Shown here piece by piece: positions 12,445 to 45,611 of a stretch of DNA of 64,000 nucleotides (position 1 is the first letter of the stretch; the number at the start of each line of letters is the position of its first letter). This stretch comes from Clostridia bacterium (GTDB lineage Bacteria > Bacillota > Clostridia > Oscillospirales > CAG-272). Made by a program: the position numbers and the translations under genes. Where the stretch lies: NCBI GenBank assembly GCA_017462795.1, contig JAFTQL010000035.1:62360-126359 (forward strand), given 5' to 3'. The notes below the pieces were generated by a model. That model had not been told where the DNA came from. It saw only the letters and a program-made list of their open reading frames with translations, and did no database searches.

Positions 12445-12509
12445 TCTCTGTTTCCCTTTCATGAAAAATTTATTATTCCGCGGTATTACCCGCTAAGAAC
12501 CACAGTTTA

Positions 12510-13760: not shown

Positions 13761-13879
13761 ATTTTATTCCTCATTTCGCATAGAAGTGTGGATGCTTGAG
13801 ACCGACATCCCTCAGGGCGAAGAAATGCCCAAATTTCCTTCACCCGTCGGTACTGTCGGAGTAATTACTCAAAAAACGA

Positions 13880-14008
13880 TCAAAGCTCTTCGATGCCTAC
13901 GGACATGTTGATGTCGTCAGCCTGTATACCGTTACTCAATGCAATGATATCCTTGCTTTCAAGAGCTATAGCGATCACAACGGGAGTTGTATATGTATTC
14001 TTTTTCAT
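13880..14008 (-). CDS. Small ORF A (42 aa), member of a three-copy peptide family
   Basis: Below the ORF-track size cutoff; own translation: MKKNTYTTPVVIAIALESKDIIALSNGIQADDINMSVGIEEL. AGGAG lies ~9 nt upstream. It shares Y-[TI]-x-P-x(9)-[KEQ]-D-I-[IM]-x-x-S with the ORFs at 30253-30399 and 41214-41354. Confidence 0.55.
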   Translation of the reverse strand: MKKNTYTTPVVIAIALESKDIIALSNGIQADDINMSVGIEEL

Positions 14009-14036
14009 AATCTTATTCTCCTTTTCCATATTAGGA

Positions 14037-15266: not shown

Positions 15267-15385
15267 TCGTGTTTTTCCTTTCTGCTGTCTGTTACAGCAA
15301 TAAATTTTTATTCCAAACCGCTTGGGCAGGCGGTTAAAAAATACTTGATAGATCAAAATTTGTAATTACTTCCGTTATATTTTCT

Positions 15386-27851: not shown

Positions 27852-28901
27852 TTAAATTACAAGATCGGTAATAATAGGTAAATGATCGGAGGGATATACG
27901 TGTACGCCGTCCGAGGTAGTGTACTCATAATCACCAACCCGATATTCAGCCACCTTATCCTTCAAAGCGTCGCTGACAAAACAGAAATCTATTCTGTCTC
28001 CGTTTCCGCTGTTACCGTCAATCGCCTGATAGTCCTGTCCCTGTGTTTCGACTCTGAACGCGCTGTTCCAAGTGTCACTGACTACGGTCTTTTTCGCGAT
28101 CAGTCCCGAATCGTTCCAGCCGCTATCCGTAACGGTACTGTAGAAATTTTTCCATCCCGTACCGTAATCCAAGCCGTTGGGAGCATCGTTAAAGTCCGCG
28201 GTCATAATGACCTTGTCGGTGCCATACTCGACCATAAGCTCCCCGACAAGCCTTTGCAGCATCTGCATCTGAGCGCAGCGCTCAAAGAACCTGAGCCTGA
28301 AAAGCAATTTTTCAACATCAGTCTTAGACTCATAATTGCCGTTGTTGTGTCCCCTGTGCTGGAGATGGGTATTAACATATATAATATCCTCTCCATCAAT
28401 ATCAAGCACAACATAATTCATAAGTCTTGAAGCGAGGCTGTAGCTATTGGGACTTGGCATTCCGTTCTTTTTAAGACCTGTGCCCTCATAATGTCCCAGA
28501 GCCGCAAGCTCATCCGATGTCATTTTTCCATCGGAAATAAGTCCGTCATAAGTCAGCGCAACCGTGGAATTAGTTCCGTCCGAGGTAAGCCAATTCCAGC
28601 CGTGATGCTTTACCTTAATACCGTTCTTTATATAAACAGAGCAGTATTCCATAGTATGAGCTTTGTGAACAGTATCGGGAATATAGCGTGTATATCCCTC
28701 CCCCAGAGATATATTGTTCACCCAATTATTGACGTCCTCCTGAAGTCCGACGATATCGGGCTGAAATGACAGTATCTGTTCAGCCACTGCCCGGACTCTG
28801 TTCTTTGACTGTCGGTTAAGCTCCCCCGTTCCGCCCTTGTGGCCATCCACGTCATAGGTATCCATGCGGACGTTGAAGCTGAGTATTCTGAGTTTTTTCA
28901 T
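27852..28901 (-). CDS. Cassette B signal-less EEP-fold phosphoesterase
   Basis: I prefer the ATG at 28901 (MKKLRILSFNVRMD), 3 nt after the upstream stop. Motifs IVGLQEDV, ADFND and YPSDHLPIITDL. Close paralogue of 33502-34683. Confidence 0.8.
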   Translation of the reverse strand: MKKLRILSFNVRMDTYDVDGHKGGTGELNRQSKNRVRAVAEQILSFQPDIVGLQEDVNNWVNNISLGEGYTRYIPDTVHKAHTMEYCSVYIKNGIKVKHHGWNWLTSDGTNSTVALTYDGLISDGKMTSDELAALGHYEGTGLKKNGMPSPNSYSLASRLMNYVVLDIDGEDIIYVNTHLQHRGHNNGNYESKTDVEKLLFRLRFFERCAQMQMLQRLVGELMVEYGTDKVIMTADFNDAPNGLDYGTGWKNFYSTVTDSGWNDSGLIAKKTVVSDTWNSAFRVETQGQDYQAIDGNSGNGDRIDFCFVSDALKDKVAEYRVGDYEYTTSDGVHVYPSDHLPIITDLVI

Positions 28902-28903
28902 AA

Positions 28904-30238
28904 TCAGTCTTGTGTCAGTGTTTCGGTCTTTGTTGCTCCGCAAGAAATATTTCCGTCAGCGTCACTCATATAAGTAGTTACCGTTGCGGAAACAGTAGCC
29001 TCTGCGGGAACTCCCGCAATTACCAGAACATACAGATAATCTCCGTCGATCACCGTCTCACCCGACCGAGTCTGCTTTGTAGTGTAAGTAATTCCGCCAC
29101 CCTGAACAGATGTGTAGACGGTATTGCAGGATACCTTCTGAGCCTTGGTAACTCCGCCATATGTAACGGTTACGTAAAATCCTATATCATTTATCTCTCC
29201 GAGATCCTCTGTATCAAGAACTCCGACCATACGGTAATCAACAAGTCCGTCAACCACCCTGTCCTGAATACCGTAGTAGCGTGTACTTGCGCTCACATCT
29301 GACGTGCAATCCGATACGTTCAATGTTTTTGTTGAGCCACTCTTCAAATTAGCATAATTCGAAGGATTATACTCTGACGGCAGTACAGTACAGCTTGTGA
29401 CTGTGGTGTTGGCATTTACCAAACCTATAATACTACCAGCTGTCGAGGTACCCATCTCGCCTTCAAGACTCACACTACAATTTGAAACAGATACAGATCC
29501 CGCATTTACACAATATCCTATTATACCGCCGACATTACTCGTGCCTTTTACAGTTCCGTTAAAAGAACAGTTGCTGATAGTTACAGTCGTTGATGTATTT
29601 TTTGATGTATCGTTTGCAACAGCGTTCACAGAGCCTATAATACCGCCAACCTGACCTGCGCCCTTAACATTACCGTTTATAATGTGAACATTATCGATAA
29701 TCAGATCGCTGTCATAAACATTTAAGTTCATTCGTGAGCCTACAATAGCACCAACATTTGCAACAGCGGCAGCAGATTCGCCGTTACTGCTTGTATTTTC
29801 CGCTGACGCATCAACAGTAATATTGATCAATGTCAGGTTCTTGATAGTACCTCCTGCAAAACGGAACATACCGGGACTTGATTTGCAGTTTGTTACATTG
29901 ATTCCCGCAACCGTATGACCGTTACCATCAAATGTACCGTCAAAGATTATACCCTTCCACGTTTTACCCGTATAGTCGATATCCGCAGTCAGCTTTATGT
30001 ATGCACCCTTCAGATTAGTATGAGGGCTTGTAGAGCTGTTGAATGCCGCAAGCTCATCCGCAGAACCGATAGTAAGCTCTATAGACGCGAAATCATCTTT
30101 TGTATAACCGCTGGTGCCGGCAAGCCATGACGACATGGAAACCGGTGTTCTTTGCGCGCTGTCAGTCGCAAATACTCCCATGGGAAGAAGAGTGAGAAGC
30201 ATTGCGCAAAGTATTAAGCAACATATAATTCTTTTCAT
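28904..30238 (-). CDS. Cassette B free member: secreted GLUG-type beta-helix repeat protein ending in the shared C-terminal module
   Basis: I prefer the start at 30238 (MKRIICCLILCAMLLTLLPMGVFA|TD, with GGGGGG upstream). FDGTFDGNGHTVAGINV is followed by repeated ..N[CV]..NG.V.G...VGGIIG. units. The C-terminal module reads ..YRMVGVLD..IGFYVTV..NTVYTSVQGGG..GDYLYVLVIAGV.. Confidence 0.75.
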   Translation of the reverse strand: MKRIICCLILCAMLLTLLPMGVFATDSAQRTPVSMSSWLAGTSGYTKDDFASIELTIGSADELAAFNSSTSPHTNLKGAYIKLTADIDYTGKTWKGIIFDGTFDGNGHTVAGINVTNCKSSPGMFRFAGGTIKNLTLINITVDASAENTSSNGESAAAVANVGAIVGSRMNLNVYDSDLIIDNVHIINGNVKGAGQVGGIIGSVNAVANDTSKNTSTTVTISNCSFNGTVKGTSNVGGIIGYCVNAGSVSVSNCSVSLEGEMGTSTAGSIIGLVNANTTVTSCTVLPSEYNPSNYANLKSGSTKTLNVSDCTSDVSASTRYYGIQDRVVDGLVDYRMVGVLDTEDLGEINDIGFYVTVTYGGVTKAQKVSCNTVYTSVQGGGITYTTKQTRSGETVIDGDYLYVLVIAGVPAEATVSATVTTYMSDADGNISCGATKTETLTQD

Positions 30239-30252
30239 CGTCTTACCCCCCG

Positions 30253-30399
30253 TCAAAACGGCCATTGGTAAACACCGTAACCGGTGCTTGTGCCGTTGCT
30301 GTCATCAAGCGATAACGTACCGCCCGATGTCACCATAATGTCTTCCGTTTGTGTACAGATCAATGTGCACTCGGGTGAAATATATTCTTTCATATTCAT
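30253..30399 (-). CDS. Small ORF B (48 aa; 46 if started at the second ATG), member of the three-copy peptide family
   Basis: Own translation: MNMKEYISPECTLICTQTEDIMVTSGGTLSLDDSNGTSTGYGVYQWPF. AAGGA is upstream. The stop lies 14 nt before the start of 28904-30238. Confidence 0.55.
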   Translation of the reverse strand: MNMKEYISPECTLICTQTEDIMVTSGGTLSLDDSNGTSTGYGVYQWPF

Positions 30400-30471
30400 T
30401 TCTTTCCTTATTAATTAATTATTTTGATTCACATCAAGGGGCGGTGTACGCCCCCCGATTTTATAAGGATA

Positions 30472-31947
30472 TTACTTTCTCTTTTTGCAAACTACCGCAC
30501 CCGCGCCTGCAAGTACCGTCATTATAACAATGCCTGCGCCGATCGCTGATCCGCATCCGCCTTCATCTGTTACAGCCTCTGTTCCGTCTCCGCCTTCTGT
30601 GGCAGCAGAACCGTTATCTGTTGTATTTGCGGTGCCATCCGTTTCGGTATTGCTGTTGTTACCTGTATCTGTACTATCGTTATTGTTATCGGTATCGGCA
30701 CTGCCGTTATTGTTGTTATTATTGTTATTGTTTTCGGAAGATGCTGTCTTGCTGATAAGAGTATCCGCAAGAAGCGCTGTCGCGAGCGTTGCGTCCTCTG
30801 CCGCCGATGTTGTACCCTCGTTTCCGCTCTCGGTCACATTACCTGACTGAACAGCATAACCGAACACTGCATTTGCGCTGCCGTCTGCTGCCGCCGCACC
30901 CGTAGTTATTGCACCGAAGTTTTTGCAGTTGGTAACACTTACCTTATGAGAATCGGCAGTTCCGATAATTGCTCCGACATAATAGTTGTTTGTCTTGACA
31001 CTACCGTTATTGATACAACCGCTGATCACGCTTGCCTCAGTTGCCTGAGTGGAGTAACAGCGCGCAATGATTCCGCCTGTTCCCCTTGTATTCTTATCCA
31101 TAGCCTTGGATTCGACAGCACCCGCGTTACGGCAGTTTGTAACAGTGATCTTTACATTGGATGTACCTACGATACCGCCCGCATCGCGTGCAGCGGCGGT
31201 TATCGCTCCGGTATTTGTGCAGTTGGTAACTGTATGAGTGGAAACGCCTGTTGCCTCGTTGAACTCATCCTGCGTTACCTTTTGTCCCGCAACATTATAT
31301 GAACCTACACCCGTAACACTGGAATAACCTACTATACCGCCTATCATTGCGCTCGTACCCTCAACGGTTGCTTTGTTCCAACAGTTATCAACAGTAGTGT
31401 TCATGCCCTTATCTCCGGTAATACCGCCGACTATACCGCCTGTTCTGTTGCCGCCCTTAAAAGAGCAGCCCTCTCCAAGAATAACATTCTTGATGGTTGC
31501 ACCCTGAACATTTCCGAACAGACCTACGTGCTGAGTAGTTCCGTAATCAACCACGAGGTTATCAATTGTATAGCCCTGACCGTCAAATGTACCTCTGAAG
31601 GGCTTTGTGTTTGCCTCGGAAGCGCCGCCTCCGATAGGCTTGAAGTTGTTGACACCTGTCATATCGATGTCATTTGCAAGATAGAGCGTGATCCCGCTGA
31701 AGCGGCTCTCCGCTATGCTGACAGCGGTAAGCTCGAGAGCTGTGGATATCTTGAATTCCTTTGCCTCGGTCTCTGGATTTGCTATGTATTCCGCAACGCT
31801 GGGAATATTGGAAAGATCCTTCTGCTCCACTCTCGCGTCGGAATATCCTACTATGTCCGCTGTGATCTGCGCGTCTGCCGCCATGGCAGGAATGGCAATA
31901 CCCAATGCAAGAATTGCCGTAAGAATGAATGCGATTACTTTTTTCAT
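30472..31947 (-). CDS. Cassette B anchored member: secreted GLUG-type beta-helix repeat protein with C-terminal GGCGS-TM-KKRK tail
   Basis: 491 aa. Signal peptide ..GIAIPAMA|AD. FRGTFDGQGYTIDNLVV, then repeats with TGGIVGG, IGGIVGY, AGGIVGT, TGGIIAR and VGAIIGT. A poly-Asn/Thr/Asp linker (NNNNNNNNN) follows. C-terminus: DEGGCGSAIGAGIVIMTVLAGAGAVVCKKRK. Confidence 0.8.
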   Translation of the reverse strand: MKKVIAFILTAILALGIAIPAMAADAQITADIVGYSDARVEQKDLSNIPSVAEYIANPETEAKEFKISTALELTAVSIAESRFSGITLYLANDIDMTGVNNFKPIGGGASEANTKPFRGTFDGQGYTIDNLVVDYGTTQHVGLFGNVQGATIKNVILGEGCSFKGGNRTGGIVGGITGDKGMNTTVDNCWNKATVEGTSAMIGGIVGYSSVTGVGSYNVAGQKVTQDEFNEATGVSTHTVTNCTNTGAITAAARDAGGIVGTSNVKITVTNCRNAGAVESKAMDKNTRGTGGIIARCYSTQATEASVISGCINNGSVKTNNYYVGAIIGTADSHKVSVTNCKNFGAITTGAAAADGSANAVFGYAVQSGNVTESGNEGTTSAAEDATLATALLADTLISKTASSENNNNNNNNNGSADTDNNNDSTDTGNNSNTETDGTANTTDNGSAATEGGDGTEAVTDEGGCGSAIGAGIVIMTVLAGAGAVVCKKRK

Positions 31948-31999
31948 ATTTTCCTCCTGAATTTAATTTATTTTAGAGCGTTTTTACGCATAGCTCTCT

Positions 32000-33466
32000 T
32001 TATGAAAGGCTCTTGTAAAGCGACTCGAACTGACTGTTCCAGGATGTTACATTTCCCGAATAGTATGTGGAGATAGAGCCCTGTACCTTATCATCTCTCC
32101 AATAGGTATCCATCTGATACATATTGTAAGGATCGGGGGTAATGTTTGAACACATAGCCGCAAGATAGGTCAGAACGGACGTATCGCGGATTATCTCCAG
32201 CATATCCATCTGCCTTGGGCTGTTTGCGTACTGAAGTCCGAGTGTCTGCTCATAATATGCGGGCACTGCCTCGTAATGAGAATAGTAGGATTTTACCTCT
32301 ATCACCTTTCCGACAAGCTCAACATCAGCCGCGTTCTTCATTATCATGATCATCATTGCCGATGCGCCCGCAGGTGTGTAATATCTTCCCTGCTCCTCAT
32401 TATACATGGGCACGGGTGCAAGACCCCAATCAAAATCACTGTCACGGAAAAATTCTCCCGTTGACAAAAATCCGTGGTAGAACAGCGAGCGTCCCGCCTC
32501 AAATACGCCTCTTCCGGCATCCGAATCCGCAGATACCGTAACTACCATATTTGATACGTTGTTTTCAAAAACGGAGCTGAGATAGTCGTACATCTCAATA
32601 AAGCTCTCGCCTGCCGCTTCTTTCATATATATGTTACCGTCTTTGGTGCTTCTCTCGGTGACATTTGCGTTGAACGCTGTCATAAAGCCGCGGCTCGCCA
32701 CGCAGTGTCCCACATATCCGAAGGTATCCGAGGCAAGATTGCCCACACCGCCGTCAGCAGCTCCGCCAACCTTCTTTGCCATGCCGAACATGACCTCAGC
32801 CGTCCACTTATTTGCCTCAACAAGATCGTAAATATTGTCAAGACCGTGGTTGTCAAGTATTTCCTCATTGAAGAAGACAGCGCCCATACCCGAATAGTCT
32901 GTCAGAGACGCGTCGCTTCTGATACCGAAAAGCTTGCCGTTGATACCGTAGGTATTAAGCATGTCCGAAAGATACCAGGGCTTATCCGTCTCAAGCACCT
33001 CGACAGTTGTCAGATCAAGAACGAGTCCGTTTTTGAGGGCATATCCATAGGACGCGCTGGTCTCCGCCATGATAAGGTCGAACTCCGCGGTGCTGTCCAT
33101 CGCCATGGCGAGCAAACGGTTATTGAACGTCGCTCTTGTTGCCCAGTTGCCGTCAAGCTGAGTATAAGACATGTTGATACCAAGATGGGCTTTCACCTGA
33201 GCGTCTACTCCGAAGACCGCCTGACTTACAACCGTTCCGCCTGCCTCATTGGCATAGTCCAGAGTATCGTGAGTGGGTAAAAGTATTTTTATATCTTTTC
33301 CCTTGTTGTCCTCAGCGGCAACACTAAGAGGCAGTCTGTCATCATGGGTCTCAACCGTTCCCGGGGACGTATTGGAGCTTCCCTCATCCGGACCCTTACA
33401 TGACACGATAATGGGGATCAACATAAGCACCGCAAGCGCTAACGCCAGAACTTTGATCTTTCTCAT
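32000..33466 (-). CDS. Cassette B lipoprotein, solute-binding-protein-like (orphan)
   Basis: 488 aa. Lipobox IIVSC|KG. Paralogous to 10909-12444 and 45612-47093. Confidence 0.75.
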   Translation of the reverse strand: MRKIKVLALALAVLMLIPIIVSCKGPDEGSSNTSPGTVETHDDRLPLSVAAEDNKGKDIKILLPTHDTLDYANEAGGTVVSQAVFGVDAQVKAHLGINMSYTQLDGNWATRATFNNRLLAMAMDSTAEFDLIMAETSASYGYALKNGLVLDLTTVEVLETDKPWYLSDMLNTYGINGKLFGIRSDASLTDYSGMGAVFFNEEILDNHGLDNIYDLVEANKWTAEVMFGMAKKVGGAADGGVGNLASDTFGYVGHCVASRGFMTAFNANVTERSTKDGNIYMKEAAGESFIEMYDYLSSVFENNVSNMVVTVSADSDAGRGVFEAGRSLFYHGFLSTGEFFRDSDFDWGLAPVPMYNEEQGRYYTPAGASAMMIMIMKNAADVELVGKVIEVKSYYSHYEAVPAYYEQTLGLQYANSPRQMDMLEIIRDTSVLTYLAAMCSNITPDPYNMYQMDTYWRDDKVQGSISTYYSGNVTSWNSQFESLYKSLS

Positions 33467-33501
33467 AAAAACTTTTCTCCTTTTTATTTTATTTTTTTAC
33501 A

Positions 33502-34683
33502 TCAACCGATAGCAAAATCCACGATGACAGGAAGATGATCCGAAGGATAAACGTCCACATTCTGTTTTTGAGTTCCCTCCGCCAGAGCAAGTGTCCATTT
33601 TACCTTTCCCACCTGATATAGCATGACTCTGTTTTTAAGCTCCTCGGACACAACACAGAAATCTATCCTTCCGTTGAGCTTATTCTCTTTATCGGATACA
33701 TACCCCTGACCTTGCTTGCTGATATCAAACGCGGAATTCCAGCTATGCTCCAGCTTACTGCCTTGCTTGGCGATCTCCATGCTGTCGAAAAGATACTTTT
33801 CCACGTTTTTGAAAAATCCGCTTGTAGATCCGTCATTGAAGTCGCCGGACATAATAACAGACGCATCCGTATATGTCTTTTTCAGCTCCTCTATCTGCGC
33901 CTTTACCATTTCATACTGCAAGCCTCTCTCGCAATAGCGGAGCATGTACAGCGGATGATCGGTATATTCTCCTTCGCTGTAGCCGCGGTGCTGGAAATGA
34001 GCGTTTACATAAATAACATCCTTGCCGTTGACCTCAAGCACCACGTAATTCATTATTCTCGCCGCCAGCTTGTTACCGTAGCTCTTGTTGTTATCATTTC
34101 TGTCGACATATGTGGTCTTAAGTCCCGCGTCATTGACGATGCCGATATCCATAAGCGCAAACGCGTCCATGTCGTAGTATCCGTCACCGTCCGTAAGCTC
34201 CGCGTAGGTCGCTGCCACTGTCTGATTTGTTCCGTCGGACGTCAGCCATTTCCAACCGTGAGCCTTAACCGTGATACCCTTTTTTACGTAGATAGACAAA
34301 TATTCGTGAGTTGATGAGTCCATCTTTACGTCGGGAATATAACGTGCATATACGTCCCCGCTTATGTTGATGTTATCCACCCAATTCTGTACGTCCTCCT
34401 GAAGTCCTATAACATCGGGATCATAGGAAAGTATCTGCTCGCGCACAGCCTGCACACGGTTTTTTGACAGGGCGTCGAGCGTACCCAGGACTGTTGTATT
34501 CAGATCCATGCGCACATTGAAGCTGACAAGTCTGAGATTCGGGTCGCCGATGATCTCCTCTGTCGAGGGTGCCTCTTGCGTATCGGTGGTATCCGCGGGA
34601 TGATCTCCCGTGTCATTACACGCGCCTGCCATAGGCAACAGCAGGCAGATACACAGAAGAAAGACTAAAATTCGCTTTTTCAT
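33502..34683 (-). CDS. Cassette B exported EEP-fold phosphoesterase lipoprotein
   Basis: 393 aa. Lipobox MAGAC|ND. LRLVSFNVRMD, VIGLQEDV, GDFND and YPSDHLPVIVDF. Confidence 0.8.
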   Translation of the reverse strand: MKKRILVFLLCICLLLPMAGACNDTGDHPADTTDTQEAPSTEEIIGDPNLRLVSFNVRMDLNTTVLGTLDALSKNRVQAVREQILSYDPDVIGLQEDVQNWVDNINISGDVYARYIPDVKMDSSTHEYLSIYVKKGITVKAHGWKWLTSDGTNQTVAATYAELTDGDGYYDMDAFALMDIGIVNDAGLKTTYVDRNDNNKSYGNKLAARIMNYVVLEVNGKDVIYVNAHFQHRGYSEGEYTDHPLYMLRYCERGLQYEMVKAQIEELKKTYTDASVIMSGDFNDGSTSGFFKNVEKYLFDSMEIAKQGSKLEHSWNSAFDISKQGQGYVSDKENKLNGRIDFCVVSEELKNRVMLYQVGKVKWTLALAEGTQKQNVDVYPSDHLPVIVDFAIG

Positions 34684-34723
34684 CCTTTTCTCTCCTTATG
34701 TATTAATGTATAAAGCGTGTATG

Positions 34724-35635
34724 TCATATCTCATCAAAGACTCTCACATAGTCAACCTCAAAGACATCGGGAAGGGTTGCCTCAAACAGCTCGGGTACAG
34801 GCTCGCCCGCACAGCATCCCTTTGCCGTAACCTCTCCCGCTTCGCCCTGAGCCTTGAATACTCTGTTATAGCCATGGCACTCAGTCGTAACCAGCAGGAA
34901 TTGCTCAACCTGCGATACCGCGCACTCGGGCGCCATCTGCTTGCCGACTATCTTGCCGTCCGCGTAAAAGGTATATCCCTCGGGAGTCCAGTGTACCGCG
35001 TAATTGTGCCAGCCGTCATCCGTCTCTTCAAGCGGAAACTCATAGTGACCTGCCCACTTGCCCTCGGCGCCGTATCCGCCCCAGCCACATCCGCACACCA
35101 TAGTGCCGAACTTGTGCTGACGGTAGTTTTCCATGATGTCGCATTCCACTCCGGCAACGGCAGGATCGGGATGAGCGCCTATGGATGGAGACTGAAGCCA
35201 GAAGGCACAGTGCCACCCGTCGCATCTCGGCAGACGGCAACGGATCTCATAGTATCCGTATTTGTGCATAAACTTGAACTCATCCTTTGCTCCAAAGGGC
35301 CAGAACTTTTTGGAAGTTCCGTCACGAGGATTATCAAATGTCAGACCTCCTGTCTGTAGATGAGCGGAACAGAAATCATCTCCCTTGCGGAGAAGATGTA
35401 TCTTAAGAGTGTCGTCACTTACCTCCACTCCCTCGGTGGTAAATGCCGGCGAACGATAGCCCCAGAAGTTGAGACGGTAGTTCCACTTACTCTCATCAAG
35501 GGCGTTTCCGTCAAACTCGTCGTTCCAGACAAGCTTCCACCTCTTATCGGCGGGAAGCACACTGGGCGCGTGTCCCGGGACAACTACTTCTTCATTCATG
35601 TTGATCTCTTTCGGTTTTACCTGTACAAAAGGCAT
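34724..35635 (-). CDS. GH16-family glycosidase (beta-glucanase/laminarinase-like), cytoplasmic
   Basis: 303 aa. WKLVWNDEFDGNALDESKWNY and the catalytic E-x-D-x-x-E motif as GVECDIMENY. No signal peptide. It lies 40 nt upstream of cassette B, so the two are probably co-transcribed. Confidence 0.8.
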   Translation of the reverse strand: MPFVQVKPKEINMNEEVVVPGHAPSVLPADKRWKLVWNDEFDGNALDESKWNYRLNFWGYRSPAFTTEGVEVSDDTLKIHLLRKGDDFCSAHLQTGGLTFDNPRDGTSKKFWPFGAKDEFKFMHKYGYYEIRCRLPRCDGWHCAFWLQSPSIGAHPDPAVAGVECDIMENYRQHKFGTMVCGCGWGGYGAEGKWAGHYEFPLEETDDGWHNYAVHWTPEGYTFYADGKIVGKQMAPECAVSQVEQFLLVTTECHGYNRVFKAQGEAGEVTAKGCCAGEPVPELFEATLPDVFEVDYVRVFDEI

Positions 35636-35823: not shown

Positions 35824-36645
35824 ATGAAAATTCCCGAAATTATCATAATAAGAAACGGCACATGGCATAACTACCGAAAGCAAAAGAAGACACCGTCAAG
35901 ATTTGTGCTTACCTATGAGATCGAATATCACCGCAAAAGCTACGGTGAGACCACGATCAACGGAGTATCATATCCCATAGAAAAAGACACCGTTACCTTT
36001 AACCGCCCCGGCGACATACGGAGCAGCCGTTTCAATATAGGCATTGAAGCCGAGACCGAATTTTTTTATTTCATCGTAAGCGCGGACGAGAAGAACTCGA
36101 ACTTTGAGTATATGCTCGAAAACATTCCAAATCACACACGTGCGGATGAGAAAACTAAAAAAATGTGGGAAAAGATCACTTCCGATTACATCAACAAAAA
36201 CGATCCTCTCTTTGAAATGCAGGCATATCTCAACCTTTTGTCCTTCCTTACATTTCTCTCTCAAAAGGGACGCAATGACTCGCATCTGCCCACAGCTCCG
36301 TCGCCCCATCAGCTTGCGCTCTTTGAGGCTATCAGGTATATGCAGGAGCATCTTACCGAAAATATTTCGGTCAACGATATTGCGGCGCATATCGGCTACA
36401 GCCAATCACACTTCAATCACCTTTTCAAAACCTACACTCAGCACACCCCTCATTCCTACTATATATCGTTGAAAATAAGCGAGGCAAAATACATGCTTCT
36501 CAACACCAACAAAAGTATCGCGCAGATATCGGAGGCGCTGGCATTCAGCAAGACCAGCAAATTCAGCAGCGCTTTCAAAAAAGAATGTCACATGACTCCG
36601 GGTGAGTTCCGGAAAACACGCGACGTAATATTTTATAACGATTAA
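35824..36645 (+). CDS. AraC-family transcriptional regulator
   Basis: 273 aa. HTH: IGYSQSHFNHLFKTYTQHTPHSYY ... LAFSKTSKFSSAFKKECHMTPGEFRK. Confidence 0.8.
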   Translation: MKIPEIIIIRNGTWHNYRKQKKTPSRFVLTYEIEYHRKSYGETTINGVSYPIEKDTVTFNRPGDIRSSRFNIGIEAETEFFYFIVSADEKNSNFEYMLENIPNHTRADEKTKKMWEKITSDYINKNDPLFEMQAYLNLLSFLTFLSQKGRNDSHLPTAPSPHQLALFEAIRYMQEHLTENISVNDIAAHIGYSQSHFNHLFKTYTQHTPHSYYISLKISEAKYMLLNTNKSIAQISEALAFSKTSKFSSAFKKECHMTPGEFRKTRDVIFYND

Positions 36646-39417: not shown

Positions 39418-41214
39418 TTAAAATGAAATATCCACGATCTCGGGACAGTGATCGGAGGCGATAAGCGCATAGGTGCAGGTCACTGTTGCAAAACCGTTTA
39501 CTGTAATATTGCCGTATTTCCATACCTGGTCAATGGAATCGGCATATTTTTTTGTGGGACGGCTCCATGAGATATAGGTCTCATAGAGAGTGCTGTACTC
39601 AGCATCCTTGTGATGTCCCGATGAATCGTTCTTCAATGCAGCCTCATCCCATGCGGATACCAGACCGCCACCACGGAGTATATCGGCAGGGGCGGAGGAA
39701 ACAGTGCAGTTGAGGTCGCCGCCCACTATGAGAGGAAGCTCGGCATAGGAGGCATTTGAGCGTATAGTACCGATAAGCTCCAAAAGCTGTCCCGCCTCGG
39801 AAAGGCGCGCCGCGTCTCCCTCAAGATCACTTGTCCAGTAAAAGTGAGTTGACATGGCAATAAAGCACTTGCCCGTAGCGCGCACACGCATGACAGCCCA
39901 GGTCACCGACTTGGAATTCACGTCATTCAACCCCTCATAAAGCAGGTATCCGCTATCCACGATCTCAAGCTTATCGGAACGGTAAAACAGGGGAGTAAAA
40001 TTGGATGAAACTCCGTTGACCCTTACCTCGGACTAGCCCAGCTCTGTCAGCTTGCTTATCAGACTGCCGCTTCTGACGTTGGAGCTGAATTCCTGAAAAC
40101 CGATCACATCGGGAGAATACGCCTCAAGCATCTCAAGCTGCATTCTCATACGCACGCTCTCGCTGTAGCTCTCCCATCCGTACATGTTGTAAAACATGGT
40201 GCGGATGTCGCCTGTGCTTGCAAGAGTGCTTTCCGTTCTGCGCTCAAAGCCCTCGGTGGCGTCAACTGTATCCGAACGCTCGGAGACCGTGTAGTCCTTA
40301 TTACCACCGGAGGGAATGAGCGTCTTTGTTACATAATCGTAAAGCTCGTCATACGCGGCAAAACCGTTTGCCGAAAGCTCCAGCTTACCGTCCGATGCCT
40401 TTACGCTGTACTCATTCTTCCCGGGGGGCGAGGAGGAACGGGAGGTATTTCCTATCAGTATCTCATGCTCCCCTGCCGTGCCGGAGTCATCCGAAATATT
40501 CAGAAGTACACCGTAATTGTTCATCAGCCAGTATCTCAGACTGTAGGCAAAAAAGTGTTCATTTACATCCGCGTTCTTGGGAATGACCATGTCGTATTCA
40601 CACAGCTCCGTACCCAATATCTTGACACTGCCTATTCCGTATTTTACCCTTTGATGGACGGTGTGGGCAGAGGAAACGGTGAGAGTACTCCCCGCCTTCA
40701 TCTGAGCGGACATTATATTGTTCATAAAATACTGTACCGCCGTGGTGCACGCCTCCGCGCTCTTTCCGCAGATAACGACCTTGTTACCGACAATGCCGAT
40801 ATAGTAGTCGTTCATCTTTTCAAGCGTTTCGGCTATCTGCTGTGACTCTGCCCACTGTGTAACGCCCACAAGTATGGCGGGCTCGTCGGCAAGCACATCA
40901 CTGTAGTATCTGTCCGTGGACATCTGCAGCAGTACTCCCGTGCCGTTCTTTATCATCTTGGACATAGCGCCGATGACGGATACAAATGCGTCATCCGATG
41001 AAAGAGAGGACGCATAGTAAATGCTGTAGTCGCTCTGACCGTTTTCAACCACCGTCAGAGAACTTCCCGCAAAATCGGAAGAATCGGTGGACGTACCGCC
41101 CACCGTTTCTCCCGTATATTCTGATTGACCGAAGCAACCGACAAGACACACGGCTGTCATAGCCATCGCAAGAATGACGCAGATCAAACTATATACAGTG
41201 TGTTTCCGCATCAT
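39418..41214 (-). pseudogene. Cassette C exported EEP-fold phosphoesterase lipoprotein, interrupted by one in-frame TAG (40033-40035)
   Basis: ORFs 40033-41214 and 39418-39960 are in the same frame, and the 72 nt between them are open. The read-through translation ..VIGFQEFSSNVRSGSLISKLTELG*SEVRVNGVSSNFTPLFYRSDKLEIVDSGY.. aligns with the paralogue 41389-42585, ..ILAFQEFGKHYRKQEFLGGLEALGYTEVGNG..LTPLFYRADTLKVVACGY.., with the stop opposite Tyr. Lipobox CLVGC|FG. C-terminal SDHCPEIVD. Confidence 0.75.
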
Positions 41215-41354
41215 CAGAGCCTCATCAGATCGTCTATACTTATACCTGTGATATCATTGTCACTGTAAGCGCTCGTTGCCAGTGACGCGGTGATTATATC
41301 CTGCATATCAAAGATCTTTGCGTCTGCTATAGGACAAATATATTTCTTTTTCAT
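41214..41354 (-). CDS. Small ORF C (46 aa), member of the three-copy peptide family
   Basis: Own translation: MKKKYICPIADAKIFDMQDIITASLATSAYSDNDITGISIDDLMRL. GGAG is 8 nt upstream. Its TGA overlaps the ATG of the downstream lipoprotein gene (TGATG), which indicates translational coupling. Confidence 0.55.
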   Translation of the reverse strand: MKKKYICPIADAKIFDMQDIITASLATSAYSDNDITGISIDDLMRL

Positions 41355-41388
41355 TTTTATTCTCCGTTCAATTAAAGATTAGATTAAA

Positions 41389-42585
41389 TTAATTAATGGA
41401 AAAATCCGTTATCTTCGGACTGTGATCCGAGGAGAGACAAGCGTATCTGTCGGTAACTGTCGCGAAAAGCTCCACCAACAGTCCGTCCTGCCATACATGG
41501 TCTATAGACCATTCGCCGCTTTTTGAGGAATGGGAGGGACAGGTGATGAACAGCTCTGCCTCCGTGTCCCATACGGCATACGCGCCGTGACCGTTGACGG
41601 AGTTCAGCGCGCATCCCGAATCGTCAGCCGCGCTTTGTACTCTCACAAGACCGCTCTCAGCGAGTATGTCAAGCGGCTCTGTGTCTCCTCTGCCGTAGCT
41701 GCAGTTGAGGTCGCCTCCGACTATCATCGGCAAATTGCCGTGCTCCGCGCGGATATCCGCCAGCAGCTCTGTCAGCTCTACGGCATTTGAGCACCTGGTT
41801 TTATTGGCAACTCCCGCCTCAAGCTCGGGATCATTCCACATAAAGTGAGTACACATGGCGATAAATCTTTTTTTGTCGTCATTGCGCTCAAATACCGCCC
41901 ATGTTACCGATTTGGAGCTTACGTCGTTAGCACCGCCGAACAGTCTGTATCCGCACGCGACTACCTTCAAGGTGTCCGCTCTGTAAAACAGGGGGGTGAG
42001 GTTAGTTCCCTTTTCGTTGCGCAGCTCGCCGTTTCCCACCTCGGTATAACCAAGCGCCTCCAAGCCACCAAGGAACTCCTGCTTGCGGTAATGCTTGCCG
42101 AATTCCTGAAAGGCAAGTATATCGGCATTGTAGGATCTCAGCAGGCTGAGCTGAAAGGGCTGACGCTCGGCGGGCGTGGTGTTTGCCTTTTTGTTGTTCC
42201 AGCCGTATACGTTATAGTTCATATAACGTACCCGACCCGCCCGCTTTGCTCCGCAGGTCCTCAGAGAAACGCCGTCGCCCGACAACGATGTAATACCGTC
42301 AAGCGATTCCTTTGTCCGCAGCTCCTCACGGAGAGCCGACATTGCCGCCTCGTAGCCGTAGGCAGAGCCCGCGCATATGTATACGCGATCACCCTCGGAG
42401 CGGATCACATATCCGTCACCCTCGGGCATATCCGCATCGCCGATGTATATATCGCCGTCCGCCCCACTGTCGCATATTATTTCGGAAGTTATTCCCTGAT
42501 ATTCGGCTATCGCCGCCCGCAATTCCGACGCGGTATAGCGCTCCTCAAAGGACGCCTCTGCCGGAATTATTATCCGTTGATCCAT
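41389..42585 (-). CDS. Cassette C signal-less EEP-fold phosphoesterase with N-terminal accessory domain
   Basis: 398 aa. The N-terminal ~100 aa (..DIYIGDAD..DRVYICAGS..) resemble the accessory domains of 12510-13760 and 39418-41214. Motifs ILAFQEFG, GGDLNCS and SSDHSPKITDF. The start overlaps the stop of 42585-43796 (TAATG). Confidence 0.8.
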   Translation of the reverse strand: MDQRIIIPAEASFEERYTASELRAAIAEYQGITSEIICDSGADGDIYIGDADMPEGDGYVIRSEGDRVYICAGSAYGYEAAMSALREELRTKESLDGITSLSGDGVSLRTCGAKRAGRVRYMNYNVYGWNNKKANTTPAERQPFQLSLLRSYNADILAFQEFGKHYRKQEFLGGLEALGYTEVGNGELRNEKGTNLTPLFYRADTLKVVACGYRLFGGANDVSSKSVTWAVFERNDDKKRFIAMCTHFMWNDPELEAGVANKTRCSNAVELTELLADIRAEHGNLPMIVGGDLNCSYGRGDTEPLDILAESGLVRVQSAADDSGCALNSVNGHGAYAVWDTEAELFITCPSHSSKSGEWSIDHVWQDGLLVELFATVTDRYACLSSDHSPKITDFSIN

Positions 42586-43796
42586 TATGCAACAGTTTCA
42601 ACAGTAATATCAGCTGCTGTGTTACCACTGACAGTGATCTTATATGTGTCTCCTACCTGTTCGCCATTTTCCATATGGTAAGCTACTGCGTAGAAGGTAT
42701 ATGTGGTATTCACTTTCAGACCCGTCAGCTTCATACAATACAGATAATCTCCACCGAGCCACCAAGCATGACATGTATTATCGTCTGCAATAATACTCTT
42801 GTATACCGTACCACAAGCTATGGGATCAAGAGTCTTATTGTCAGTGGAAAGCTTAAATCCTATATTTTCGCTTGCAAGGTTTTGGGTATTCAGCAATCCA
42901 ACCAAACGAAGTGTATATTCATCATTCTCTACTGCAGTTGCCTGCACACCGGCAATTTTGGTTACGGTGTCTGTTTTTTTGCCATTGAGTGTAACAGTAG
43001 TCAGGTTGTCAGATGATACAGCATAGAAATCATTACTTATATCTTTTTCATCATCCAAAGTAAATTCACCGCAGTTAGTAAAATAAGCGTTGAATCCAGC
43101 CTTAAGCTGTACATAGGCAAATCCTATACCTATATCGCACGAACCGTTTGCGATAGCATCCTTTACATCTTCAGTCAAAGGCACAGCAATGTGATAAATT
43201 GCAACCGCAGGGGTACTGTCAGACGCTATATCGTCATTTCTTCCGATTAAAATACCATTTTCCATGGCTGACGCTTTGTTTACAGAAGCATAAATCTTAG
43301 GTCCCCATGCACCGGACCAACCTCTATCCTGCAAAGTCAGTTTATCATATGTTAAATGATTTGTATACTTGCCATCTAAATCATCATCTTCACTGTAAGC
43401 AGCGTAATGCACTCTTAAAACAATTTTATTATCAACTTCACTATCCGCAGTATTAAAGTCAACGTATATAAATTCTTCGGCGTGTTGATGTGCGTTTGTA
43501 TAATCACTATTGTATTTTTTCAAATAATTCATAGTCGTTTTTATATACAAGTAATCGCCATCATGAGCTACGGCAAATGAGTCTCCATTGGTAGAATAAC
43601 CATTCACTGCCGTTCCCGCTACTGTGTTATTCCACACATAAGAAGCTCCACTGTATTCGGGATTCAACTGCTCCGCAGTCATTCTGTCTCCCTGCGCGAC
43701 CTCAATAGCGGGAGATGCCGCTGTCCAAGCCATTGCAGGTACGCTTAACGCAAAGAGCGAAGCGCAAACAAGTAAAATAGAAATAATTTTTTTCAT
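42585..43796 (-). CDS. Cassette C free member: secreted protein, N-terminal domain paralogous to 43818-45590, C-terminal shared module
   Basis: 403 aa. Signal peptide ..LSVPAMA|WT. HDGDYLYIKTTM and IYHIAVPLTEDVKDAIANGSCDIGIGFAYVQ..YFTNCGEFTLD match HAGDYLYIYTRM and IFHIAVPLSEANKTALANGSCNIGVGFAYIQ..YYTNCGEFTLD. The C-terminal module reads ..TLRLVGLLN..IGFKLS..GTVYKSIIADD..GDYLYCMKLTGL..TYTFYAVAYH. Confidence 0.75.
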   Translation of the reverse strand: MKKIISILLVCASLFALSVPAMAWTAASPAIEVAQGDRMTAEQLNPEYSGASYVWNNTVAGTAVNGYSTNGDSFAVAHDGDYLYIKTTMNYLKKYNSDYTNAHQHAEEFIYVDFNTADSEVDNKIVLRVHYAAYSEDDDLDGKYTNHLTYDKLTLQDRGWSGAWGPKIYASVNKASAMENGILIGRNDDIASDSTPAVAIYHIAVPLTEDVKDAIANGSCDIGIGFAYVQLKAGFNAYFTNCGEFTLDDEKDISNDFYAVSSDNLTTVTLNGKKTDTVTKIAGVQATAVENDEYTLRLVGLLNTQNLASENIGFKLSTDNKTLDPIACGTVYKSIIADDNTCHAWWLGGDYLYCMKLTGLKVNTTYTFYAVAYHMENGEQVGDTYKITVSGNTAADITVETVA

Positions 43797-43817
43797 GTCA
43801 ATTCTCCTTTGATTTTT

Positions 43818-45590
43818 TTATTTTTCGGAGGTCTTTTTTGCTTTTCCAAAGCATGCCGCCGCAATAAGCACAACAGCCATCACCATTGCCATGCCGCCGA
43901 TGGAAGAATTACATCCGCCCTCCGCGTCATCAGTGCTGTTGGTGTCAGTCGCCTGAACATCGCCGCTTGTTTCCACATCCGAGTCGCCCGCGGTCGTTTC
44001 CTCGGCATTCGTGTCGCTCGGAACGGAGGGTACTGTGGACTTATTAGCCACAAAGTCGGCATAAGAGGCTGTTATAAACTCCTCAAATTTGGGCATTACA
44101 AGCTTCATTCCGTTCATATTGAGATGGGAAACATCTGTATTGGTCAGGCAATACTGAGAGCGGAATGTCTCGCTTGTCATGTCAACGCCCGAAACAGCGG
44201 GATCGTTTGCCTTGAAGCAATATACTCCCTGTGCCTCGCAGACACTTATCATGGCGTTGGCATAATCCGCAGACTTAAGTCCGATGTCGTTTGTACCGCC
44301 AAAGTTCCAGACAGTTGTAAACATTATCATAGCGTCGGGGTACTTCTCCTGCAGACCGTCAATGAGAACATTCAGCGCTCCCATAAAGGTCTTGGGGTCG
44401 GTGCTGTCCACTGTTCCCAGCGGTACTTCATTGTTATAGTCATTGCGTCCGCCGTCTACGATAATAAGGTCTGCGTCGTTATCCGCCATGCCCTTATAAC
44501 GGTCAACCATGGGAGTGGGATCAACGGTGGGAGCATAGCTTGATACCATTCCTCCGTTCATGCCGTAGTTCTTGAACTTCCAATAGTATTTGTCAGAAAG
44601 AAGCTTGGGCCATACGTAATCATTACCCATGGTGTGTCCCGCAAAGTAACTGTCTCCAATAATATTTACGGTAAGATCCTCAAGAGCCATGTCATAGGCG
44701 CGGCTTCTGTCCGCCTCTACCCACGCCTTCATCTGAGCGGCGATCTGCTCGGGAGTTACCTCGGCGATGTCCGCGCTTCCGATAACATTATCGGGAGTTG
44801 TGGTATTCGTACCCTTTTTAAGGGTAACAGTGGTAAGCTTATCCTCTGTTATATCGTCGTAAAAATCGTTACCTACGTTGTCGGCGTTGTCAAGAGTGAA
44901 CTCGCCGCAGTTGGTGTAGTATCTCTCAGCACCCGCTGTCTTGCACTGGATGTAGGCAAAGCCCACGCCGATATTGCAGGAACCGTTTGCGAGAGCCGTC
45001 TTGTTCGCCTCGCTGAGCGGTACCGCGATATGGAAGATAGCGTCCTCGCTGTTCTTGTTGCTGTACTCGTTACGTCCGAAGAGGATACCCGCCGCAAGAC
45101 CGCTATCCTTGTTTACGGTGGCGTTATAGCCGGGTCCCCATTCGTCGTTCTGACGCGCTCTGTCAACGACACCCTCTTTATAGTAGGATATATTTGTTCC
45201 GTCAAGCACATAAGGACCGTAATTGGGCTTGGTGATCATAATGTAATCCACCTTGTTGTCGCCCTGAGTAAGGTCAACGTAAATAAATTTCTCTACCTGT
45301 GTACGGTAAGCATAGGGAGGAGTCATCCTTGTGTATATGTACAGATAATCTCCCGCGTGTGTTATTTTAAATTCGCCCACGCCCTCATATGCGCCGTAGT
45401 TAGTTCCCGCAACGGTAACCGCGCCGCTCCAGTCATACGCCGCGTCACCCTCAAGCTCGGCGTATATCTGCTCATATGTCATTCCGTTGCTCTGCGGAAC
45501 CTCCACAGCGGGGGTTGTCCACGCCATTGCGGGAACGCTCAGCAAGAGCAAGGAGATACAGGCAAGTATCAAAGATATAGCTTTTTTCAT
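43818..45590 (-). CDS. Cassette C anchored member: secreted protein with shared N-terminal domain + SGNH esterase domain + C-terminal GGCNS-TM-KAKK tail
   Basis: 590 aa. Signal peptide ..LSVPAMA|WT. SGNH blocks VNIIGDSYFAG, GMNGGMV, IVDGGRNDY and DVSHLNMNGMK. C-terminus: AEGGCNSSIGGMAMVMAVVLIAAACFGKAKKTSEK. Confidence 0.8.
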   Translation of the reverse strand: MKKAISLILACISLLLLSVPAMAWTTPAVEVPQSNGMTYEQIYAELEGDAAYDWSGAVTVAGTNYGAYEGVGEFKITHAGDYLYIYTRMTPPYAYRTQVEKFIYVDLTQGDNKVDYIMITKPNYGPYVLDGTNISYYKEGVVDRARQNDEWGPGYNATVNKDSGLAAGILFGRNEYSNKNSEDAIFHIAVPLSEANKTALANGSCNIGVGFAYIQCKTAGAERYYTNCGEFTLDNADNVGNDFYDDITEDKLTTVTLKKGTNTTTPDNVIGSADIAEVTPEQIAAQMKAWVEADRSRAYDMALEDLTVNIIGDSYFAGHTMGNDYVWPKLLSDKYYWKFKNYGMNGGMVSSYAPTVDPTPMVDRYKGMADNDADLIIVDGGRNDYNNEVPLGTVDSTDPKTFMGALNVLIDGLQEKYPDAMIMFTTVWNFGGTNDIGLKSADYANAMISVCEAQGVYCFKANDPAVSGVDMTSETFRSQYCLTNTDVSHLNMNGMKLVMPKFEEFITASYADFVANKSTVPSVPSDTNAEETTAGDSDVETSGDVQATDTNSTDDAEGGCNSSIGGMAMVMAVVLIAAACFGKAKKTSEK

Positions 45591-45611
45591 TTTTATCCCC
45601 CGATGAAATTA

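Follow-up and report, generated by a model that had tools for sequence, protein, structure and literature searches.

PqqD-type domains bind the leader peptides of ribosomal natural products, and the leaders of lasso peptides carry a Y-x-x-P motif and a penultimate Thr. In the lasso peptide clusters of Firmicutes, a homologue of HPr kinase phosphorylates a Ser at the C terminus, and a nucleotidyltransferase adds a hexose to the phosphate (PMC8498205 and PMC7533575). These clusters are the closest known systems to the peptide family considered here, one member of which, termed copy B, is encoded by a small open reading frame (ORF) on the reverse strand of a 64,000-nucleotide (nt) stretch of Clostridia bacterium DNA (contig JAFTQL010000035.1, positions 62,360 to 126,359, assembly GCA_017462795.1), referred to below as the window. 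Precursors of the paeninodin/pseudomycoidin type and the copy B family share a short leader in which an aromatic-x-x-Pro motif is followed by an extended segment, a Thr two residues before the cleavage site (proposed, in the case of copy B) and a core that often starts with Gly. The accessory protein families encoded next to the precursor are also the same, namely, a PqqD-like B1 protein, an HPr kinase homologue, a nucleotidyltransferase and an ATP-binding cassette (ABC) exporter. Unlike the lasso clusters, the cassette loci of the copy B family feature an S24 serine peptidase, with no lasso cyclase or transglutaminase-type leader protease found in those examined. Further, the leader is 5 residues longer, tails ending in Ser are rare, no curated lasso model matches, and many copies of the precursor occur as scattered orphans that follow genes for large secreted proteins.

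Double-glycine-leader peptides (class II bacteriocins and ComC/BlpC-type pheromones) are similar in being small, unstructured precursors in which a conserved N-terminal leader precedes a variable C-terminal product, served by a dedicated ABC exporter, and a few loci of the copy B family adjoin a LytTR regulator and a GHKL kinase. The copy B family, however, does not conserve Gly-Gly, and its exporter has no C39 peptidase domain. The protease is instead a predicted cytoplasmic S24 protein encoded separately, and the loci add a PqqD protein, a kinase and a nucleotidyltransferase. Weak matches of the kinase-like protein also recall the ScmC/SynChlorMet (TIGR04249) and HprK-related kinase A (TIGR04352) cassettes, which are known as NCBIfam/TIGRFAM models only, but the scores are far below threshold, and the loci analyzed here have no radical SAM partners and include a peptide family that is a candidate substrate. 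Neither the peptide family nor the cassette together with a substrate was found described in the open-access papers searched, although an earlier description elsewhere is possible.

Copy B is a real, conserved gene under purifying selection and a member of a large, unnamed and unannotated family of small peptides of gut and rumen Clostridia. We put the probability at about 0.5 that it encodes a translated precursor-type peptide, composed of a leader and a core, that is cut and exported. The features of the copy B locus to which this reading refers are as follows.

30253..30399, reverse strand: copy B small ORF, 48 amino acids (aa) counted from the first ATG
30402..30409, reverse strand: ribosome-binding site of copy B, AAGGAAAG
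30325..30399, reverse strand: conserved leader-like segment, M1 to S25, with Y6-x-x-P9 and E19-D20-I21-M22-V23-T24-S25 (Ser25 being the proposed P1 residue)
30256..30324, reverse strand: variable tail and proposed core, G26 to F48, GGTLSLDDSNGTSTGYGVYQWPF
30438..30454, no strand assigned: G+C-rich hairpin (GGGGCG-loop-CGCCCC), situated between copy B and the gene upstream of it

The ORF and its translation, MNMKEYISPECTLICTQTEDIMVTSGGTLSLDDSNGTSTGYGVYQWPF, are as described in an earlier note on this DNA, as is the distance to the next gene: the TGA stop is followed by 14 nt (cggggggtaagacg, with a Shine-Dalgarno-like run) and then by the ATG of the gene at 28904..30238. Translation is likely to start at the second ATG (30393), giving a 46-aa peptide beginning MKEY, because this start better matches the family, in which M-K-K-x-Y or M-K-x-Y precedes the conserved Tyr, and agrees with the NCBI annotation (MBQ9112620.1, 46 aa, “hypothetical protein IJY08_03465,” from a metagenome-assembled genome [MAG] named Clostridia bacterium). 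The peptide has no signal sequence. In an AlphaFold model based on a 65-sequence alignment, residues 1 to 20 are extended and lack secondary structure (predicted local distance difference test score [pLDDT], 84), and the tail is of low confidence and also without secondary structure. An extended leader and a disordered tail are as might be expected for a peptide that becomes structured only on a partner.

Syntenic loci carrying copy B orthologues are present in at least five other species (L082-85, L086-88, L091, L092-93, and L098-103 with L090) and were located by exact-sequence look-ups, for which distant relatives of both the peptide and its 444-aa neighbour were used. Each contains an intact ORF of 43 to 48 codons that occupies the same place in the operon and has a ribosome-binding site of its own (AAGGAA, equivalent to that of copy B, lies upstream of the orthologues), and the claim of a small gene at this position is therefore not refuted by the orthologous loci. 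The peptides are 47 to 67% identical to copy B, and the neighbouring proteins are 44 to 64% identical to those of the window (444-aa protein, 44 to 62%; EEP protein, 64%). The proportion of synonymous differences (pS) between pairs of orthologues is 0.58 to 0.90, at which synonymous sites are saturated, whereas the nonsynonymous proportion (pN) is 0.21 to 0.43; the corresponding ratio of substitution rates (dN/dS) is 0.15 to 0.41 where dS could be computed. The gap between the peptide gene and the downstream gene is 3 to 22 nt in this subfamily, and L092 and L098 keep the entire gene order: AraC, GH16, EEP, solute-binding protein, a protein of ∼486 aa, the peptide, a protein of 441 to 707 aa, EEP and further genes. 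A metagenome scan for the copy B subfamily yielded one locus only, and in one of the other species the gene finder had missed the copy B orthologue in three of six contigs (L098-L100:8840-8986).

Conservation in the subfamily extends to the tail, which carries G-x-L-x-[LFI]-D and then a C-terminal G-[VI]-x-x-W-[PQ]-F. The two Cys residues of copy B lie within the conserved half and are not kept even in the closest orthologues. The “Cys-containing core” of the earlier note is not a feature of the family: the residues belong to the leader-like half, and Cys makes up 0.2% of tail residues in the family. A disulfide, lanthipeptide or sactipeptide built on the two Cys residues was considered and rejected because they are not conserved.

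The extent of the family became evident when all three copies of the window (B and the paralogues A and C, described below) were used in an exhaustive profile search, which recovered 115 cluster representatives at E values up to 1e-3 among 1.84 billion proteins, nearly all of them 31 to 66 aa long and matching at the N terminus. A word-indexed homology search with the three copies found nothing beyond the window's own proteins, and Pfam and NCBIfam scans of these copies and 113 relatives assigned no family. One narrow pattern, F[ED]xEDIITT, gave 104 tblastn-confirmed sites in species-representative genomes, from which 78 loci in ∼65 assemblies were retained, with ORFs called by a naive caller. 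The hosts are Ruminococcus, Lachnospiraceae, Oscillospiraceae, Roseburia, Blautia and Coprococcus, and cultured carriers include Ruminococcus flavefaciens ND2009, Clostridium sp. AM49-4BH, Porcipelethomonas ammoniilytica and Coprococcus ammoniilyticus.

The family is sharply bipartite, with a conserved leader and a variable core, as in generic precursors of ribosomally synthesized and posttranslationally modified peptides (RiPPs) that depend on a PqqD-type RiPP recognition element (RRE). The span from Tyr to Ser is 20 residues in 253 of 258 distinct peptides; among these 253, the Pro and Ser are invariant, and the Tyr and Asp are kept in 245 and 247, respectively, within the consensus M-K-K-x-Y-x-T-P-E-M-E-I-I-x-F-E-x-E-D-I-I-T-T-S. 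Copy B has the same spacing (Y6, P9 at +3, D20 at +14, and S25). Past the invariant Ser, conservation collapses: the first position is Gly in 44%, Asn in 23% and Ser in 9% of the 253 peptides, and the second is Gly in 30%. Tails are 1 to 41 residues long (median, 18), rich in Gly, Asp, Glu, Asn and Pro and poor in Lys plus Arg (∼3%), and only 8 of the 253 peptides end in Ser. Acidic residues peak at core positions 7 and 8 (0.33 to 0.34, versus 0.19 to 0.27 at positions 4 to 6 and 9 to 12). At canonical loci, the peptide gene lies 10 to 90 nt (typically 10 to 25 nt) after a gene for a large signal-peptide protein of 500 to 3,000 aa, and a gene for a small low-complexity lipoprotein often follows ∼60 to 70 nt after the peptide gene. 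Copy B likewise lies on the same strand directly after a signal-peptide-protein gene and before a secreted-protein gene.

Within the window, a motif scan recovered the two paralogues.

13880..14008, reverse strand: copy A, 42 aa, followed by an EEP lipoprotein gene (12510-13760)
41214..41354, reverse strand: copy C, 46 aa (MBQ9112631.1), with a lipoprotein/EEP gene after it

A profile hidden Markov model (HMM) built solely from family members of other genomes (alignment A3) matched copies A, B and C alone among the 1,363 stop-to-stop segments of the window, with E values of 5e-8 for copy B and 3e-6 and 7e-6 for the other two; the next-best segment scored 2.1. Since a model from other genomes matches exactly three ORFs of the window, there are three copies, no more, and they are not a product of chance. 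The small-ORF family of the earlier note, conserved in the N-terminal half and divergent in the tail, is genuine. Copy B is the most canonical of the three. As the earlier note observed, it is the only one with two Cys residues and with Gly-Gly after the conserved Ser, and its tail is unlike those of A and C. The Gly-Gly itself is not the peculiarity that it was taken for, since S-G-G belongs to the family consensus (T-T-S-G-G), in which Ser is the invariant residue. The reported difference in position was also borne out: copy B precedes a secreted paralogue of its own upstream neighbour, copy A an EEP lipoprotein gene, and copy C a lipoprotein that proved to be the N-terminal part of an EEP gene. 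This last gene (39418-41214, reverse strand) contains an in-frame TAG at 40033-40035, where an orthologue has Tyr, and its apparent split into ORFs of 393 and 180 aa is due to this codon. The orthologue (598 aa, in L096) is 62% identical over its full length and in a single frame, and the TAG may represent a nonsense mutation, a sequencing error or a pseudogene. The copy C operon is syntenic in another MAG, and copy A has no NCBI protein record.

A precursor function is suggested by a cassette of genes to which the family is linked. At least one of the HprK-like, PqqD, S24 and NTP_transf_5 genes is present in 27 of the 78 family loci, and all four are present in 15; as many of the loci are short contigs, 27 of 78 is a lower bound. 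In 21 of 23 loci, no more than 901 nt separate the peptide from the closest cassette gene. The proteins of the cassette are as follows.

Kinase-like protein, ∼245 aa: conserved SGxGKST P-loop, with weak matches to ScmC and HprK-related kinase A
PqqD protein, ∼86 aa: matches PF05402 above threshold and, in NCBIfam, comes closest to the lasso-type PqqD chaperones, although below their cut-offs
S24-type peptidase, ∼140 aa: GDSMxP and HRxxK kept; no N-terminal membrane segment
ABC exporter, 550 to 572 aa: without a peptidase domain
NTP_transf_5 nucleotidyltransferase, ∼370 aa

The kinase-like protein matches only TIGR04249 (E = 3.6e-7) and TIGR04352 (E = 6e-3), both far below cut-offs. The S24 peptidase is read as cytoplasmic because it has no N-terminal membrane segment, and the exporter as lacking a C39 domain because it aligns to peptidase-exporter models only from position ∼140 to 195. 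Peptides adjacent to the cassette have very diverse tails, some with aromatic C termini (...GNGGVW and ...EEVDW) as in copy B, and locus L019 combines a peptide and the cassette with no large upstream protein; the link is therefore to the conserved leader. No lasso cyclase or transglutaminase-type protease was found in the gene order of the examined cassette loci or by Pfam in the flanks of L008 and L029. A LytTR regulator paired with a GHKL kinase is typical of peptide-pheromone loci. Such a pair, made up of a LytTR response regulator and an AgrC/ComD-style GHKL histidine kinase, adjoins the operon in L019:7738-9845 and L009:346-2438, with the regulator alone in L018:6969-7700. Separately, a 741-aa Piwi-domain protein (prokaryotic Argonaute) is encoded beside the canonical peptide/cassette locus in L008 (5229-7454, reverse strand).

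From the genes that neighbour family members in other genomes, we infer the following route for copy B. The first ∼25 residues (Y-x-x-P ... E-D-I-M-V-T-S) would serve as a recognition leader that is bound in an extended form by the PqqD-type protein, an RRE. The precursor would then be cut at the invariant Ser|Gly junction (VTS|GG in copy B) by the cytoplasmic S24 (LexA-like) serine peptidase. Peptidases of this group (LexA, UmuD and lambda CI) cut Ala-Gly or Cys-Gly bonds, and this specificity, together with an invariant small residue, Ser, that mostly precedes Gly, is the reason for proposing cleavage at this bond. Modification by the HPr-kinase-like P-loop kinase and the NTP_transf_5 nucleotidyltransferase is possible, after which the dedicated ABC transporter would export the peptide, freeing the 23-residue acidic and aromatic tail (GGTLSLDD...GYGVYQWPF) outside the cell. 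For copies A, B and C, the cassette would have to act in trans from elsewhere in the genome, and the three would be orphan precursors if the model holds. Cleavage would make the junction Ser the C terminus of the leader fragment, so that this half, instead of the tail, may be the final product.

Several observations weigh against a cut and exported precursor. No cassette gene was detected by tblastn in the 64-kb window or in the loci orthologous to copy B, and none was detected in ∼10 kb past the high end of the window or in loci similar to those of A and C; two thirds of the canonical loci also lack the cassette within the available DNA. The leader exceeds known lasso leaders by 5 residues and is matched by no curated leader model. 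The peptide gene is, moreover, always translationally coupled to genes for secreted proteins, which could equally mean that the peptide has a cytoplasmic role in their synthesis.

Such a role, as an unprocessed small protein (adaptor, chaperone or regulator) for synthesis or secretion of the neighbours and independent of the PqqD cassette, is the alternative to which these points lead. It would account for all loci of the copy A, B and C types being without the cassette, for the tight coupling to signal-peptide-protein genes (a downstream gap of 3 to 22 nt in the copy B subfamily and an upstream gap of typically 10 to 25 nt at canonical loci) and for the absence of a signal sequence from the peptide. 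We nevertheless consider it unlikely, as it leaves unexplained both the strong link between the family and the PqqD/protease/exporter cassette and the abrupt change from an invariant N-terminal half to a variable tail, and AlphaFold predicts no autonomous fold. The reverse assignment of the two halves retains the cassette: the N-terminal 23- to 25-mer would be the mature product and the tail a discarded follower, with the new C-terminal Ser phosphorylated by the HprK-like kinase and then decorated by the nucleotidyltransferase, as in paeninodin and pseudomycoidin. The kinase/hexose chemistry at the C-terminal Ser of Firmicutes lasso clusters (PMC8498205), the conserved kinase P-loop and the combination of an invariant junction Ser with the rarity of peptides that themselves end in Ser (8 of 253) are all consistent with this arrangement. 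Tails are conserved within subfamilies, however (GYGVYxWPF in copy B relatives; (D/N)ELP at canonical loci, like the IELPFVP of the lipoproteins), which argues that the tail is functional, and the conserved segments of such precursors are usually recognition sequences, so that a mature leader appears distinctly improbable. The same accessory genes (PqqD, kinase and nucleotidyltransferase) might instead mark copy B as the precursor of a true lasso peptide, with a Y-x-x-P leader, a penultimate Thr, a core that starts with Gly, a macrolactam to Asp at position 7 or 8 and aromatic plugs. The junction of copy B (...V-T-S|G-G-T-L-S-L-D-D) does place T at −2, G at +1 and D at +7 and +8, the family-wide acidic peak falls at core positions 7 and 8, and 5 of 113 relatives match lasso leader models weakly (E = 0.04 to 0.05). 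Copy B itself matches no NCBIfam lasso precursor model, nor Pfam, at E values up to 10, and no asparagine-synthetase-like cyclase or transglutaminase-like B2 protease was found in the examined cassette loci or the Pfam-annotated parts of the window. With a Pro-to-cleavage spacing that exceeds that of the rumen Firmicutes lasso precursors listed in PMC7533575 by 5 residues and Gly starting only 44% of cores, we regard a lasso product as very doubtful.

The earlier note suggested that Gly-Gly might be a processing site, and a double-glycine-leader peptide of the class II bacteriocin or pheromone type, cut after Gly-Gly by an ABC transporter with a C39 domain, would fit the S-G-G at the copy B junction, the T-T-S-G-G family consensus and the ABC exporter linked to the family. 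Processing near S-G-G remains plausible, but cleavage after Gly-Gly is unsupported, because the linked ABC protein (550 to 572 aa) lacks a C39 domain and a separate S24 peptidase is present, which favours a cut between Ser and Gly. The LSxxELxxIxGG consensus is also absent, and Gly occupies the two positions in only 44 and 30% of peptides, whereas Ser is invariant; a leader of this type is accordingly given very little credence. Finally, the 14-nt gap to the next gene and the upstream hairpin could be read as signs of a short upstream ORF whose translation merely couples or regulates expression of the downstream gene, the peptide itself being without function. Selection acts at the amino acid level, with invariant residues and a fixed spacing in hundreds of divergent members whose contexts are unrelated, and tail motifs are conserved in subfamilies, all of which makes this scarcely credible.

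The hairpin lies at the equivalent position in four of the five species with sequence there (window, L098 with L090, L086, and L092), its position being kept and its sequence not. Located 5′ of copy B, it has no U-run on the coding strand and is not a canonical terminator; a partial terminator or a site of transcript stability or processing are candidate roles. Scans for promoters and terminators around copy B performed no better than on shuffled sequences, and Rfam gave nothing credible around the ORF.

If copy B is a cut and exported precursor, its function may be related to those of the genes with which it is arranged. The operon has the order GH16, EEP lipoprotein, solute-binding lipoprotein, 491-aa GLUG-like protein, peptide, 444-aa paralogue and second EEP, preceded by a divergent regulator.

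35824-36645, forward strand: divergent AraC regulator
32000..35635, reverse strand: upstream part of the conserved operon
34724-35635, reverse strand: GH16 gene
33502-34683, reverse strand: EEP lipoprotein gene
32000-33466, reverse strand: gene for a 488-aa solute-binding lipoprotein
30472..31947, reverse strand: upstream gene, 491 aa, with a signal peptide, GLUG-like repeats and a C-terminal GGCGS-transmembrane-KKRK anchor
28904..30238, reverse strand: downstream gene, 444-aa secreted paralogue that combines a repetitive beta region with a beta-sandwich at the C terminus
27852..28901, reverse strand: EEP (PF03372) phosphodiesterase-family gene, next in the operon

The 444- and 491-aa proteins are 27% identical (E = 3e-4). 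Their description in the earlier note as GLUG beta-helix proteins has indirect support only: neither matches Pfam GLUG, but homologues of the 444-aa protein carry PF07581 (GLUG), and in its AlphaFold model (pLDDT 78), residues 97 to 281 form a repetitive beta region and residues 332 to 441 a C-terminal beta-sandwich. Foldseek comparison of this model with the PDB returned nothing significant, and a sequence search of both neighbours against solved structures gave no match.

Three secreted proteins of the window (8899-10836, 30472-31947 and 43818-45590, all on the reverse strand) share a C terminus of G-G-C-[GN]-S, a membrane helix and a basic, KKRK-like tail. This tripartite arrangement looks like a sorting signal; it is kept in the L082 orthologue and gives weak, subthreshold matches to MYXO-CTERM and NPXTG anchor models. 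The window also contains three paralogous operons of the same design (10909-15356, 27852-35635 and 39418-47093), in each of which a large solute-binding lipoprotein that has no permease genes beside it is combined with secreted proteins of unknown fold, the peptide and an EEP lipoprotein, and GDSL esterases and GDPD phosphodiesterases are encoded near them. The design suggests degradation of surface polymers that contain phosphodiesters. Because copy B is fixed in a conserved operon of secreted proteins, its released tail probably acts on or with the surface proteins of that operon, as ligand or signal, although this is speculation.

Canonical loci have features of their own on either side of the peptide gene. 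The large secreted proteins encoded upstream (L004 to L081, e.g., L010:7410-9983, L016, L024 and L032) are otherwise unrelated but have in common a C-terminal module of ∼50 aa, ..x-Y-S-P-[ML]-S-Y-A-Y-x-V-L...L-x-N-V-x-K-A-L-Y-L-Y-x-x-A-A-x-x-Y, which has no match in Pfam or NCBIfam and occurs in no protein of the window. The small lipoproteins or N-terminally anchored proteins encoded downstream are 124 to 210 aa long, of low complexity, and end in a near-invariant I-E-L-P-F-[VI]-P-x (L004:6082-6648, L009, L012, L017, L018, L020, L027, L028, L038, L039, L067, L071 and others). Many family tails carry a (D/N)-E-L-P or E-T-P motif related to this lipoprotein C terminus, and canonical tails look like soluble copies of it. 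No lipoprotein ending in ELPFVP or WPF was found in the window. In the same organism, ∼9 kb past the high end of the window, L094:850-1092 encodes an 80-aa acidic lipoprotein that ends in ...NDGISDDIINDNF; this end is similar to the tail of copy C (GISIDDLMRL) and to those of its relatives and parallels the mimicry between lipoproteins and tails at canonical loci.

A more far-reaching interpretation, which we offer tentatively and consider somewhat unlikely as a whole, is that the family represents a new class of RiPP of gut and rumen Clostridia. Leaders would be read by PqqD and cut at Ser|Gly by the cytoplasmic S24 enzyme in place of any RiPP leader protease known so far, the Ser or the tail would be phosphorylated and then glycosylated or nucleotidylated, and orphan precursors, dozens of genes per clade, would be placed one to one in surface-protein operons. 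The tails, once exported, would mimic the C-terminal “hook” of the cognate small lipoprotein (IELPFVP at canonical loci and the GIS-DD type in this genome) and thereby tune anchoring or signalling of surface enzyme complexes, and copy B would be the ligand for an operon of GLUG-like and EEP proteins that degrades glycans.

Comparison with described systems suggests that the copy B family consists of RRE-linked precursor peptides, related to a known kind but set apart by the S24 peptidase and the absence of a cyclase. For annotation, the practical consequence is that gene callers often miss ORFs of the family, and the cultured carriers make the idea testable. If the proposed route is correct, a common, unannotated family of small genes would be the missing substrate of a widespread PqqD/HPr-kinase-like/S24/ABC/nucleotidyltransferase cassette so far without a known substrate, and an S24-type leader peptidase would be added to ribosomal peptide biosynthesis. 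Exported peptides would then be tied directly to operons of surface enzymes that degrade glycans and phosphodiesters.

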